A DNA stretch of 64,000 nucleotides from an uncultured Clostridia bacterium (GTDB lineage Bacteria > Bacillota > Clostridia > TANB77 > CAG-508), in the NCBI GenBank assembly GCA_934169775.1, contig CAKPOI010000002.1, positions 12,956 to 76,955 of the forward strand, written 5' to 3'. The notes under the pieces were generated by a model. It saw nothing but the letters and a program-made list of their open reading frames with translations. It was not told where the DNA came from and did no database searches. Positions 49,291-52,658 of this stretch are shown here, piece by piece. Position numbers and translations under genes: made by a program. The stretch's first letter is position 1; every line of letters starts with the position of its first letter.

Positions 49291-49426
49291 GTGCAGGACG
49301 GAAACCAATATTGTTGTTGGCATTGGTCGTGTTATTGTTATTGCGGTTAGAGGCTGGATTGTTAGAACCGGAATTGTTGTAATTGCCTCCCCTGTTGGCA
49401 CAAGGATTGTTGCTGTTGGAAGTTTT
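49291..49426 (-). repeat. DGR template repeat (TR)
   Basis: 136 nt homologous to 51335-51470. The coding-sense TR is rich in AAC/AAT codons. The overlapping 91-aa track ORF is not a gene. Confidence 0.9.
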
Positions 49427-49479
49427 CGATTTATCCCTAATTTTGTTTTATACACGTATTCAATTTTTGTTTTCAAAAT

Positions 49480-50490
49480 TTATTCTGTATAAAATAATTT
49501 GTTTGTTAAGTTGTATATATTTGCTATTTTTATATATCCCATATGTCCTGCTAAATATTTTTTTGCTTCTTTACTTGTTATTTTGCCTTCTTTTACTTGT
49601 TCTGTTAATTTTTTTATTTTCTTTTTTAGTTTTCTTTTTCCTTTGTCTCTTATTTTTAGTCTATATTCATTTATTTTATATCCACAAAAATTTACTCCTT
49701 GTTTGCTTTTGAATATTTGTGTTTTTTTGTTTAATTCTAATCCTAAGTTTTCTTTTAGATATTTTTGTATTTTTTCTAATGCTTCTTTTGCTTCTTGTTT
49801 TGTTTTTACAAATATTATGCTGTCGTCCAAATATCTTTTATAGTATTTTATTTTTAACTTATGCTTTATGTATTGGTCTACTTCTTTTAAATATATGTTT
49901 GCAAACATTTGTGATGTGTAATTTCCTATTTCTAATCCTTTTGGTCTTTTTTGTGCATATACTATTTCTTCTAGTAACCATATTATATCTTTGTCTTGTA
50001 TTTTTCTTTTTAATATTTTTAATAATATTTGTTTGTCTATATTGTCAAAATATTTAGATACGTCCATTTTTAGTATATAATATTCTCCCCATTTTGCTTT
50101 ACAGTGTTTCATTGTTTTTTGCGTGTCTATACATGCTTTATGCATTCCTCTGTTTTTTATACATGCATATGTGTTTTTTATAAATTGTGGTACATATGCT
50201 GGTTCTAAAAAATTATCTACTACCCATCTGTGTACTATTCTGTTTATATATTTTGACTTTTCTATTTTTCTTACTTTTGGTTCTGTTACATAAAATTCTG
50301 TATATCCTCCATGCCTGTATGTTTTGGTTTTTAGTTTTTCTAATAGCCACATTATATATTCTTCTTGCTTTAAATTAAATTCTATTATTTCTTTTCTATA
50401 GCCTTTTCCCTTTTGTGATTCCTTATGTGCAAGCATTAGTTTTTCGTATGTTAGTTTTTCTTCATATTTGTATCGTATCGTTTTTGGCAT
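49480..50490 (-). CDS. DGR reverse transcriptase
   Basis: 336 aa. RT motifs include LEIGNYTSQMFANIYL (the DGR-specific I/LGxxxSQ) and YLDD (YxDD box). No maturase or endonuclease extension. Confidence 0.92.
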   Translation of the reverse strand: MPKTIRYKYEEKLTYEKLMLAHKESQKGKGYRKEIIEFNLKQEEYIMWLLEKLKTKTYRHGGYTEFYVTEPKVRKIEKSKYINRIVHRWVVDNFLEPAYVPQFIKNTYACIKNRGMHKACIDTQKTMKHCKAKWGEYYILKMDVSKYFDNIDKQILLKILKRKIQDKDIIWLLEEIVYAQKRPKGLEIGNYTSQMFANIYLKEVDQYIKHKLKIKYYKRYLDDSIIFVKTKQEAKEALEKIQKYLKENLGLELNKKTQIFKSKQGVNFCGYKINEYRLKIRDKGKRKLKKKIKKLTEQVKEGKITSKEAKKYLAGHMGYIKIANIYNLTNKLFYTE

Positions 50491-50713
50491 AGTATTTTAT
50501 TAGTCCTCCTAATATTTTTCCTATTTCATATATTTGCTCCATTGCTACTCTGAATTTCTTTTCGTCTATCCATTGGTTCTTTTTCATTATTCTTAAATAT
50601 ATTCTTTGTGTGTTTAGCTCTGCATCTATATGGTTTAGTGTTTCTATTATTTGGCTTTTTTCTCCTTTACCTATTTTGTTTATATACATTATTTTTCTTA
50701 TCATTTGATACAT
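50462..50713 (-). CDS. Avd-like (accessory variability determinant) helical protein, short form (83 aa)
   Basis: The basic helical protein ending in MEQIYEIGKILGGLIKYYAK resembles the C-terminal helices of Avd. Its 3' end overlaps the RT start by 29 nt. Confidence 0.6.
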   Translation of the reverse strand: MYQMIRKIMYINKIGKGEKSQIIETLNHIDAELNTQRIYLRIMKKNQWIDEKKFRVAMEQIYEIGKILGGLIKYYAKNDTIQI

Positions 50714-50726
50714 GCTTTGTTTATAT

Positions 50727-51050
50727 TCATTTCCTATACTGAATTTTTCTGTTCTTATATTTTCCTGTGTATTTTTTTATTACTTCTAGTCTGTTTGTTT
50801 GTTGATTGAAATAATACACTATGTATGAGTATTCCTTTTCTTCTAATTTTTTCATATATGTTTCTATTGAATTTACTGGTATTCCTATTTTACATACTTC
50901 TGGTTCCATTCATAATAACTTTAACCCTAATATTTCGTTTAATTTTACTGCGTCTTTTCCTCTTGCTAGATAAAATGCTCCTACATTTGCTAATATTATG
51001 TAACCTTTGTTTTTTTCTTGTAATAATTTTAGCATTGTACTAAATCCCAT
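50727..51050 (-). pseudogene. MutS-domain-I-like DGR accessory ORF interrupted by one in-frame TGA (50910-50912)
   Basis: MGFSTMLKLLQEKNKGYIILANVGAFYLARGKDAVKLNEILGLKLL-TGA-MEPEVCKIGIPVNSIETYMKKLEEKEYSYIVYY aligns with MutS TPMMQQY...GDFYELF..DA......L...LT......IPMAGVP.......KL...G..VAI. RBS AGGAGG sits 7 nt upstream. Confidence 0.6.
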
Positions 51051-51150
51051 TTTTCTACCTCCTGCTTTGTTTTATTTTTAAAGCTGACGCGGTTCGTTTT
51101 TTGTCTGAAAGCTCAAAAAAAAAAACGCTACCGCCAGGTATCGTTACCGC

Positions 51151-51224
51151 CAGGTGAAAAATTGAATGACAGGATTTACCAAGAACAAGTTCTTGATAAA
51201 TCCTGTCATTCAATTTTTCACCTG
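51151..51224. repeat. Long inverted repeat (36-nt arms, 1 mismatch) in the G+C-enriched spacer downstream of VR
   Basis: CAGGTGAAAAATTGAATGACAGGATTTACCAAGAAC / GTTCTTGATAAATCCTGTCATTCAATTTTTCACCTG. Adjacent is a 9-bp hairpin at 51225-51251, CCTCTAGCG...CGCTAGAGG. Confidence 0.7.
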
Positions 51225-51320
51225 CCTCTAGCGTATTTCATTCGCTAGAGGGTACTTATTATTCAATTTACCGGCTATAAAATGACTCTCTCGCCTATTT
51301 TATAATCACGGCTTTAGTTT

Positions 51321-52658
51321 TCAGTTTACATAAAGTGCAGGACGGAATCCAATAAGGTAGTTGGCAGAGGCCGTGCTGCAGTCATAGCGGCTAGAGGCTG
51401 GATCGCCAGAACCGGAATAGTAGTAATTGCCTCCCCTGCTGGCACAAGGACTGCTGCTGTTGGAAGTTTTTTCTAATGTCCATTCCCATTCATTTCCTGC
51501 AAAATCATAAATGTTCATCTTTTTTGTATAATCTGTTATTCCTGTGCTTAATAGTGTATCATAATCTGGACTTGTATTTGGTTTTGTATATGAATCTGTA
51601 ATTGTTGTCCATGTTCCTAATGTTCCATTTTTATATATAGCATATTTTCCTGATGTTATATTTTCTATTTTTGCATTTTCATAGTTTCCCCAACTTGTGC
51701 TATTTGAATTTATATCTGTTGCTGCTAATCCACCTTTTACTTCTAAAAACTTACATACTAAGTCCCATTGGATTCCAAACATTAAACTACTTGTATAATT
51801 ACTATTTGGTGTCATTTCTTTAGCTAGAGCTTGTGCCTCACTGCAATATATCCAGTTGTATGGTATTGCATCTTTTTGGCTTATGGCTTTTGGAGATGTT
51901 CCTATTGTTATTCTTGCTGATGAATCTGTTCTTGCATTTGTTGTTTCTGTTGTTGTTCCTTCTATTCCTGCTTCATATCTTCCTATCCAGAATCCTCCAT
52001 AAGTATATATACTTTTTAACATTTTTTGATATGCTGCTTTATATTCATCTGATGTTATTCCACATCCTTCGTACCATTCATCTGTCCAATTTCTTCCTTG
52101 TCCTAATTTTCCTTCTCTGTATGTTGTTGCATATGCTATTAATTTATTCTTTATATCTGTATAATTTTGGTCTGTTAATGTGTTTGTTGTATCTATTGTT
52201 AATCCTGTAAATACTGTTGTTTTTGGTACTTCTATCCAAACCCATTCATTATTGTTTTTATCTTTTATTACTATTCCTTTACTTGCATCTGCTTCTATTA
52301 CTGTAGAATTTGCAGGTACTGCTCCTGCTGGGTTTGAATCTGATTTATTTATATTAGTAAAATTTGAACTTGTTCCTCCTCCAGATCCACCATTTCCAGA
52401 GCCTCCACCTGTTGTTCCATCTGCATATTGTTCTATTGTGCTTTCATATCCTGCTAATTTCTCTGTTTCTTCATCATTTTTTTGATTTGTTTGTTCTTTT
52501 GCTTCTGCTGCTCTTTTTAATATTCCGTTATCTCCACTTAATGCTGCAATTGTTACTCCTGCTAATATTAGAAGTACAATGATTGTAATTACTAATGCTA
52601 TTAGAGTTATACCTTTATTGCTTTTTGTATTCATTTTTATTCTGTCTTTTATCTTCAT
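51321..52658 (-). CDS. DGR variable protein: prepilin-like N-terminus + Gly-rich linker + FGE-sulfatase/C-type-lectin-fold domain carrying VR
   Basis: MKIKDRIKMNTKSNKG-ITLIALVITIIVLLILAGVTIAALSGDNGILKR. FGE-like motifs GFWIGRYEAG, IYDFAGNEWEWT, SRGGNYYY and IGFRPAL. Confidence 0.9.
   Translation of the reverse strand: MKIKDRIKMNTKSNKGITLIALVITIIVLLILAGVTIAALSGDNGILKRAAEAKEQTNQKNDEETEKLAGYESTIEQYADGTTGGGSGNGGSGGGTSSNFTNINKSDSNPAGAVPANSTVIEADASKGIVIKDKNNNEWVWIEVPKTTVFTGLTIDTTNTLTDQNYTDIKNKLIAYATTYREGKLGQGRNWTDEWYEGCGITSDEYKAAYQKMLKSIYTYGGFWIGRYEAGIEGTTTETTNARTDSSARITIGTSPKAISQKDAIPYNWIYCSEAQALAKEMTPNSNYTSSLMFGIQWDLVCKFLEVKGGLAATDINSNSTSWGNYENAKIENITSGKYAIYKNGTLGTWTTITDSYTKPNTSPDYDTLLSTGITDYTKKMNIYDFAGNEWEWTLEKTSNSSSPCASRGGNYYYSGSGDPASSRYDCSTASANYLIGFRPALYVN
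51335..51470 (-). repeat. DGR variable repeat (VR) at the 3' end of the target gene
   Basis: 22 mismatches to the TR over 136 nt. 20 of them fall at TR coding-strand adenines. VR ends 11 nt before the stop codon. Confidence 0.9.

Follow-up and report, generated by a model that had tools for sequence, protein, structure and literature searches.

In the diversity-generating retroelement (DGR) of Bordetella phage BPP-1, in which the order is mtd-avd-TR-brt, a template region (TR) and a variable region (VR) differ at adenines of AAY codons, the VR occupies the 3' end of a gene for a protein with a C-type lectin fold, and an Avd accessory protein is present. A 140-nt Spacer directly 3' of the BPP-1 TR gives the priming adenosine and is required for cDNA synthesis by bRT-Avd (bioRxiv 10.1101/2023.10.23.563531). 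The DNA analysed here, a 64,000-nt stretch of contig CAKPOI010000002.1 from an uncultured gut Clostridia bacterium (GC content ~27%; hereafter the window), holds a cassette that is like the phage element in its adenine-specific TR/VR differences in AAY codons, in the position of its VR at the 3' end of a C-type-lectin-fold protein gene, in having an avd homologue, and in a structured RNA of ~140 nt directly 3' of the TR, which is the Spacer/RT-10 in BPP-1 and RT-14 in the window. Unlike the phage element, however, the window element is chromosomal and is ordered target-MSL-avd-RT-TR, with the TR after the reverse transcriptase (RT) gene; it has additional MSL (MutS-domain-I-like) and SSB-like (single-stranded-DNA-binding-protein-like) genes; its lectin domain is of the FGE/TvpA type and not of the Mtd type; and its avd is truncated. 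Moreover, a hairpin downstream of its VR stands ~80 nt away instead of following directly, and in place of a multi-position difference between the initiation of mutagenic homing sites, IMH and IMH*, it has only a C/T difference at the repeat boundary.

TvpA of Treponema denticola is a lipoprotein. The TvpA DGR (2Y3C) and the window element share an FGE-sulfatase-type lectin fold in which the VR lies over the ..RGG..(variable)..GFR.. C-terminal segment; the N-terminus of the window target, in contrast, is pilin-like, and the window accessories are MSL, Avd and an SSB-like protein, whereas Wu et al. 2018 (PMC5758913) give the Treponema DGR an HRDC accessory gene. That survey presents MSL as a DGR accessory gene that always occurs with avd ('Architecture D', e.g., the Legionella DGR). 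A small MutS-domain-I-like gene together with avd is common to those DGRs and the window, but in the window MSL is shortened and broken by a stop codon, and a pilin-type target, RT-14 and an SSB-like gene are not among the features described in the consulted passages of the survey. The type V pilus-adhesin DGRs of Bacteroides (Macadangdang et al., bioRxiv 10.1101/2024.11.15.621889) are likewise chromosomal elements of gut bacteria that act on an adhesive pilus component; they differ in concerning type V pili of Bacteroidota rather than a type IV pilin-like protein of Clostridia, and in their target family. The modular type 4 pilins of the monoderm Streptococcus sanguinis (PMC9934059) join a pilin N-terminal part to a C-terminal ligand-binding module, as the window target does, but unlike that target they are not hypervariable and have no retroelement link.

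The repeat pair and the reverse transcriptase

The cassette genes are all on the minus strand, which was taken as the coding strand for the mismatch tally. As located with BLAST and MAFFT, the TR (49287..49426, minus strand) is non-coding and begins 54 nt past the RT stop codon, and the VR (51331..51470, minus strand) makes up the last ~46 codons of the target gene, a 445-aa open reading frame (ORF) at 51321..52658 (minus strand). An earlier, sequence-only reading of this DNA had reported a gap-free pair of 136 nt with 22 mismatches, 20 of them at TR adenines, and the computed alignment of 49291-49426 with 51335-51470 reproduced each of these figures (136 columns, zero gaps, 22 mismatches by MAFFT). 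On the coding strand, the changes at adenines comprise 11 A>G, 7 A>T and 2 A>C, and the other two mismatches fall on TR thymines. With 49 A in the 136 bases of the TR (36% A), the hypergeometric probability of at least 20 of 22 mismatches on A is P = 8.5e-9, and both an even spread over the four bases and indels are ruled out. The reading frame is kept, and the A to G, T or C changes run in one direction only. By BLAST the repeat extends to 49287-49426 / 51331-51470, with one further mismatch, C>T at the 3' boundary (49289/51333); when this mismatch is counted, the share of A sites is 20/23. A second VR was not found by BLAST in the window.

In the frame of the target ORF, 17 codons differ, and 15 of these are AAC or AAT in the TR; among them, an AAT>TGC codon that contains a T>C change was confirmed as given in the sequence-only reading. 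The two changed codons that are not AAY are ACC>GCC and a synonymous GGT>GGA, and none of the four adenines at codon position 3 is changed. The TR holds 18 AAY codons in the target frame, where AAY represents 40% of TR codons compared to 7.8% elsewhere in the gene, and these codons are unable to mutate into stop codons. The further claim that mutagenesis is confined to AAY codons largely comes down to the make-up of the mutated span, in which most adenines (33/39) sit within AAY codons: 19/33 AAY adenines were changed compared to 1/6 of the other adenines (Fisher P = 0.09), and the restriction is therefore a property of the template design and no separate signal.

The RT gene (49480..50490, minus strand) lies between the VR and the TR and is an intact ORF of 336 aa, with a match to RVT_1 at 1.6e-19 and the motifs LEIGNYTSQ (IGxxxSQ type) and YLDD (YxDD) in its translation. 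The best match in the Protein Data Bank (PDB), over the full length of the protein, is 8UB7_A (E = 1.7e-36), which we take to be the Bordetella phage bRT; group II RTs match at 8e-18. The typing of the RT is based on RVT_1, the PDB matches and the motifs, as NCBIfam has no DGR-specific RT model. Relatives of this RT at 61-79% identity were found at 56 loci of GTDB species genomes, nearly all of them metagenome-assembled genomes of uncultured gut Clostridia/Bacillota, including one circular genome of 1.57 Mb. These loci were scanned for repeat pairs by self-BLAST, and a pair was kept if adenines in whichever copy lies downstream of the RT accounted for at least 75% of its mismatches. An A-biased pair was recovered in 34 of the 56 loci, with the TR just downstream of the RT and the VR typically ~2 kb upstream; between VR and TR, most of these 34 loci encode MSL (~140-190 aa), Avd (118-136 aa) and RT (~336-346 aa). 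The RT, Avd, MSL, the lectin-type target and the A-biased pairs of the related loci all agree with the DGR interpretation given by the sequence-only reading, and the TR/VR pair of the window was almost certainly made by a DGR.

On the minus strand, the cassette runs from the target with its VR through hairpins and a terminator to MSL, avd, RT, TR, RT-14 and the SSB-like gene. The flanking genes encode IF3, a tRNA-editing domain protein, a Na/Ca exchanger and SerRS, and L35 and L20 are also present in the near-identical contig L001; because these surroundings are ordinary chromosomal genes, the element is regarded as a cellular DGR and not as part of a prophage. L004, L070, L071 and L075 share with the window, at 85-96% identity, an entire unit of ~4.3 kb (48856-53118) that starts ~460 nt upstream of the target gene and finishes with the SSB-like gene, in differing genomic neighbourhoods (SecE-NusG, DUF3990, SIS/GATase and radical SAM). 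The variety of these neighbourhoods points to paralogous copies or to mobility.

A pilin-like target with a lectin domain

The 445-aa target is composed of a pilin-like N-terminus, a Gly/Ser linker and a C-type lectin domain of the FGE/TvpA type. Its N-terminus reads ..NKG|ITLIALVITIIVLLILAGV.., its C-terminal domain finishes ..IGFRPALYVN, and the full-length targets of the family all begin ..KGITLIALV(I/V)TI(I/V)(I/V)LLILAG... Residues 15-78 of the target are 65% identical to the N-terminus of a pilin encoded in the same window (37885..38328, minus strand; 147 aa; Pfam N_methyl at 21.4 bits vs a cutoff of 21.2), and the signal/alpha-1 segment is nearly identical between the two proteins. Type IV pilus machinery is encoded at 31756..37800 (minus strand) and includes PilC-like (31756-33093), PilT-like (33162-34262) and PilB-like (34293-35936) proteins and a prepilin peptidase (36991-37800); the Pfam matches are T2SSF, T2SSE (twice) and A24_N_bact, together with a weak PilN-like match, and they span 31.7-41.4 kb. 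A prepilin peptidase and assembly machinery for a type IV pilus are hence encoded in the genome, and the pilus cluster sits 13 kb from the DGR target. The cluster as a whole (31756-41395, minus strand) looks complete, and several small unannotated ORFs within it may be minor pilins.

Assignment of the C-terminal domain came from a profile. The window protein has no Pfam match in this domain at 0.01 (FGE-sulfatase is at E = 0.088), while the Pfam FGE-sulfatase cutoff is passed in three relatives of the target, and a profile of 14 diverse C-terminal domains ranks TvpA (2Y3C) first among PDB chains (E = 2.2e-5), with FGE-family chains next. At E <= 1e-5 the target has >7,900 homologous proteins, with at least six paralogues on a single contig of 1.47 Mb (L083; ERZ28756056:contig_9157). 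At 10001-11341 this contig carries a target paralogue with 85% identity that has no adjacent MSL, avd or RT, and a sortase and a SpaA-type pilin are found next to it instead.

Several observations limit the assignment of the target as a pilin. Position +5 is Ala in both the target and the pilin at 37885-38328, so that the usual Glu is absent; the pilin role of the target is based on N-terminal similarity alone; and the AlphaFold2 (AF2) model of the whole target has a pLDDT of 41.5 and was excluded from the fold search. In addition, the target has no Pfam N_methyl match at E <= 0.01, and a PDB sequence search with it gave only weak N-terminal matches, to geopilin and MshA (E = 0.13-0.8). On balance, the sequence comparisons suggest that the target is probably a pilin-anchored, DGR-variable lectin, and that the type IV pilus whose genes lie 13 kb away would probably display it. 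No paper describing a DGR with a type IV pilin or prepilin target was found in the literature searched; one survey names a 'GspG-type pilin' domain among rare VR-bearing domains.

Structured RNA, hairpins and an SSB-like gene

The Rfam RT-14 RNA (RF02921) was detected at 49112..49291 (minus strand) with 81.6 bits against a gathering score of 48.1, and the match covers the full model (1-144). RT-1 to RT-19 are motifs found near RT genes, and among these only RT-10 has been tied to a DGR, that of BPP-1, where it lies between TR and RT; a DGR-like role of the other RT motifs was offered as speculation only (Weinberg et al. 2017, PMC5737381). In the window, the RT-14 RNA starts at the 3' boundary of the TR, and the RT-14 model opens with the nine bases of the boundary string CUCUAAUAC. 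In 13 relatives with a scan-mapped TR (the TR of L070 was mapped separately), the start of RT-14 falls in the final 2-9 nt of the TR, and in L006, the 14th relative, it adjoins the TR as well, giving 14/14 relatives checked (L015, L017, L019, L023, L025, L028, L031, L039, L041, L047, L050, L058, L070 and L006). By position and size, RT-14 is probably the counterpart of the BPP-1 Spacer, and a function in cDNA priming is suggested by this analogy; because it adjoins the TR in the window and in all of the relatives checked, this DGR family probably has RT-14 as its Spacer-like priming RNA.

The same boundary bears on the IMH question. Over their last 30 nt, TR and VR differ at a single lineage-specific T/A position, the GGT/GGA mismatch, which the sequence-only reading had placed where an IMH/IMH* distinction is expected. 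That proposal is not supported: the relatives inspected have no mismatch at this position, and the difference is consequently read as a private substitution and not as a conserved IMH* mark. The sole consistent TR/VR difference family-wide is at the boundary itself, with CTCTAATA in the TR vs CTTTAT in the VR; there the TR ends ...CACTCTAATA and the VR ...CACTTTAT, and this C/T difference is kept across relatives whose RTs are only 61-79% identical. It is the one recurrent non-A mismatch of the family, and RT-14 begins there.

Downstream of the VR, at a distance of ~80 nt, a conserved hairpin (51225..51251, minus strand) has the form CCTCTAGCG-AATGAAATA-CGCTAGAGG and is followed by a GGTGAAAAATT motif. 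It recurs at the same position in L018, L020, L025, L026, L033, L040, L041, L044, L045, L052, L069, L070, L075 and L082, divergent relatives included, with a conserved core CGAAYGRAATACG and the trailing motif GGAAAATTTT. The outer stem covaries on 15 sequences, with 99% of cells paired and compensatory changes in 4/7 pairs, and when sites were chosen by the loop and tail motifs alone, at least 5/6 flanking bases were complementary in 11/15. This hairpin could correspond to the BPP-1 target-recognition hairpin (PMC3240598), or it could act as an RNA element or belong to a terminator. Between it and the terminator lies a 74-nt near-perfect palindrome (51151..51224) that is common to the deletion-bearing subfamily described below and absent from L006, and other relatives have different long hairpins at this place. 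Sub-threshold Rfam matches of the palindrome to miRNAs were dismissed as artefacts that any long hairpin produces. The terminator-like hairpin itself, with its T11 run, was read from the sequence at 51115..51150 (minus strand), downstream of the target and upstream of MSL, and at the same position L006 has GCGCTACC-TGGC-GGTAGCG followed by T8.

The last gene of the cassette (48847..49089, minus strand) encodes an SSB-like OB-fold protein of 80 aa. A tblastn match to this ORF was obtained in 49/56 of the GTDB loci, nearly always just downstream of TR/RT-14. Pfam matches to SSB (19 bits) and OB are sub-threshold, and the AF2 model (pLDDT 85) was matched by Foldseek to 3KOJ, 1Z9F and the OB domains of SsbA/SsbB with TM 0.8-0.88 and probability 1.0, the top matches, all to bacterial SSB OB domains, being at TM 0.86-0.88. 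The gene is put forward as a candidate accessory factor of DGRs, and the literature searched yielded no account of an SSB-like accessory in a DGR.

Damage to the accessory genes and the activity of the element

Both MSL and avd are damaged in the window. The MSL remnant (50727..51050, minus strand) matches Pfam MutS_I at 31.2 bits (cutoff 20.6) with its stop codon read through, and the avd remnant (50462..50776, minus strand) matches NCBIfam DivGenRetAVD at 58 bits and Pfam bAvd at 8e-16, the latter over profile positions 22-106 only; a PDB sequence search with Avd gave nothing significant. Compared to the intact relatives L006 and L007, in which the RTs are ~92% identical to that of the window, MSL is 149 aa and Avd is 129 aa, the window has a deletion of 251 nt with its junction at 50744..50756 (minus strand; break ~50751/50752). 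The deletion takes the 3' third of MSL and approximately the first 33 avd codons and is out of frame, and the MSL remnant ends in an 11-codon out-of-frame tail after it. The avd frame is open from 50776, and its first ATG, at 50713, is codon 47 of the intact protein, would yield 83 aa and has no Shine-Dalgarno sequence at a normal distance. In place of an intact Avd, the window copy has an avd homologue that is 5'-truncated. Furthermore, MSL contains an in-frame TGA at 50910-50912, where relatives have TGT or TGC (Cys). Both lesions are also found in L001, L003 and L002 (the last of which starts at window position 50927 and spans the TGA codon and the junction), and because they recur in these contigs they are not assembly errors.

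Several ways of reading through these lesions were considered and set aside. An alternative code (TGA as Trp or Gly) was rejected, as recoding lengthens no large ORF of the window and the relatives have TGT or TGC. Selenocysteine at the MSL TGA is unlikely, since the Cys-encoding relatives share the same downstream sequence, and no SECIS has therefore evolved there; no tRNA genes are present in the window. An in-frame MSL-Avd fusion was discarded because 251 nt is not divisible by 3 and the two frames are offset by +1. A slip at an A7 run (~50780) could join the MSL and avd frames, but intact relatives have this run too, and the window MSL has a stop codon anyway.

Similar damage was observed elsewhere in the family. 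The identical deletion junction, but with TGC at the stop position, is present in L070-L073, which are ~10% diverged and lie in other genomic contexts, and some of these deletion cassettes are additionally without part of the RT. In L075-L082 the lesions are different ones: MSL has an internal deletion, avd has a 1-nt frameshift, and the RT is split. Decay has occurred repeatedly among these cassettes. Chimeras of MSL and the 80-aa ORF were also encountered (P0171 and P0174, 93 aa), in which the MSL N-terminus is joined to the SSB-like C-terminus; P0174 is on 25 contigs, the longest of 198 kb, and the P0171/P0174 cassettes have lost avd, RT and TR via a deletion between ..DAV.. microhomologies.

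Activity was judged from assembled contigs. The TR of the window has two private non-A states, T at 49367 and T at 49295 (C and A, respectively, in four other TR types), and the VR mirrors both. On a human gut contig (L084; OUQW01035132, reverse strand 440-579), a paralogous target, with a gene body 79% identical, carries a VR that differs from a window-type TR by 22 A and 3 non-A mismatches, compared to 9-11 non-A mismatches from the other TR types, and that differs from the window VR at 25 TR-adenine positions. From the fit of this VR and from the private states copied into the window VR, it follows that the window TR type wrote at least two different VRs; these comparisons indicate that the element is one that was active in the past. 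The cassette downstream of the L084 target is deleted a few codons into MSL, and this gene may represent a remote or orphan target for that same TR. The TR/VR pair of L071 (ERZ28616868 scaffold_1785) was not used as evidence, as it has 19 non-A mismatches and its VR fits the TR of L070/L072; L071 is probably an assembly chimera at the repeat, or else its VR was written by homing from the TR of another cassette.

The preferred explanation, which we hold with good confidence, is a chromosomal DGR that varies the lectin head of a pilin-like protein, present here as a damaged copy whose VR is most likely the frozen product of past homing. On the model of the Bordetella phage, a transcript with the TR and the adjoining RT-14 RNA would be reverse-transcribed by the cassette RT, bases would be misincorporated opposite template adenines, and the cDNA would take the place of the VR at the target's 3' end; because the target is pilin-like with a TvpA-type lectin head, it would be the ligand-binding surface of a probably pilus-displayed protein that is varied. 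A very different origin, in which the TR is a silent pilin cassette and homologous recombination or gene conversion produces the variation in the manner of pilE/pilS, without reverse transcription, could draw on the pilin-like target and on the many paralogous copies per genome, but recombination would not restrict the differences to the adenines of one copy, the donor is directly flanked by an RT gene on one side and an RT-associated structured RNA on the other, and the same directional bias recurs in the 34 related loci; this origin is most improbable. Even less can be said for an ordinary duplication diverging by ordinary mutation, with the A bias due to chance or base composition: the genome is indeed AT-rich and the TR rich in A, but the hypergeometric test is already conditioned on TR composition, and neither the one-directional, frame-keeping, indel-free changes nor the A-biased pairs of the related loci fit such an account, which we regard as practically negligible.

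A fully functional cassette, in which an 83-aa Avd without its first helix suffices, MSL can be done without and diversification of the pilin continues, is consistent with the intact RT ORF, TR, RT-14 RNA and VR frame, with the mirrored TR states and the second VR from the same TR type, and with the occurrence of one deletion junction in ~10% diverged cassettes of other genomic contexts. Purifying selection also speaks for function and against a dead copy: between two deletion-bearing cassettes, the avd remnant has 6 synonymous vs 1 non-synonymous change (omega 0.03), and the RT has a dN/dS of 0.12 (window vs L071). If the deletion is identical by descent, the co-variation of TR and VR would imply homing after the deletion, and the lesion may be tolerated or complemented. 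Recombination between cassette copies could, however, mimic such post-deletion homing, and the lowest divergence is found close to the deletion (dS is 0.07 in MSL vs 0.15-0.39 elsewhere), and the conservation of the avd remnant could reflect a short-Avd function, recombination or something else. Full function is opposed by the avd remnant itself, which has no ATG until codon 47 and no normally spaced Shine-Dalgarno sequence and is matched by Avd profiles from position 22/23 onward only. Avd belongs to the catalytic RNP in the Bordetella phage system (bioRxiv 10.1101/2023.10.23.563531), and sister deletion cassettes proceed to lose parts of the RT. The window, L001 and L003 have one and the same VR; this is weak evidence of inactivity because the three assemblies are near-clonal (1-2 SNPs per 2-6 kb). 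Additionally, the TR has T at 49334 where both known VRs carry C, which suggests that the TR mutated after the last homing. Considering both sides, a fully functional cassette is doubtful, and it is likewise rather unlikely that the window copy is still autonomously active. The VR is most likely a frozen product of past homing, and if the element is still working, it probably relies on helper proteins supplied by other copies of the cassette.

The TR/VR pattern is a textbook DGR signature, the mechanism it points to is shared with the BPP-1 and TvpA DGRs, and what is known of that mechanism is unchanged by it. With some hesitation, as the odds are somewhat against it, we propose a class of DGRs in small-genome gut Clostridia that hypervaries a type IV pilin-like lectin head, uses RT-14 as priming RNA and has a dedicated mini-SSB, and that may home with an Avd lacking the first helix or through trans-complementation among cassettes and orphan targets; the class was not found described as such. 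For the RNA, the orphan Rfam motif RT-14 gains a concrete role as an RNA that adjoins a DGR template, and the modelled SSB-like gene is flagged as a candidate new DGR accessory factor. The natural series of decaying cassettes could reveal which parts of Avd and MSL are dispensable. Finally, these data indicate a very large family (>7,900 homologues) of DGR-diversified pilin-like lectins in uncultured gut Clostridia.

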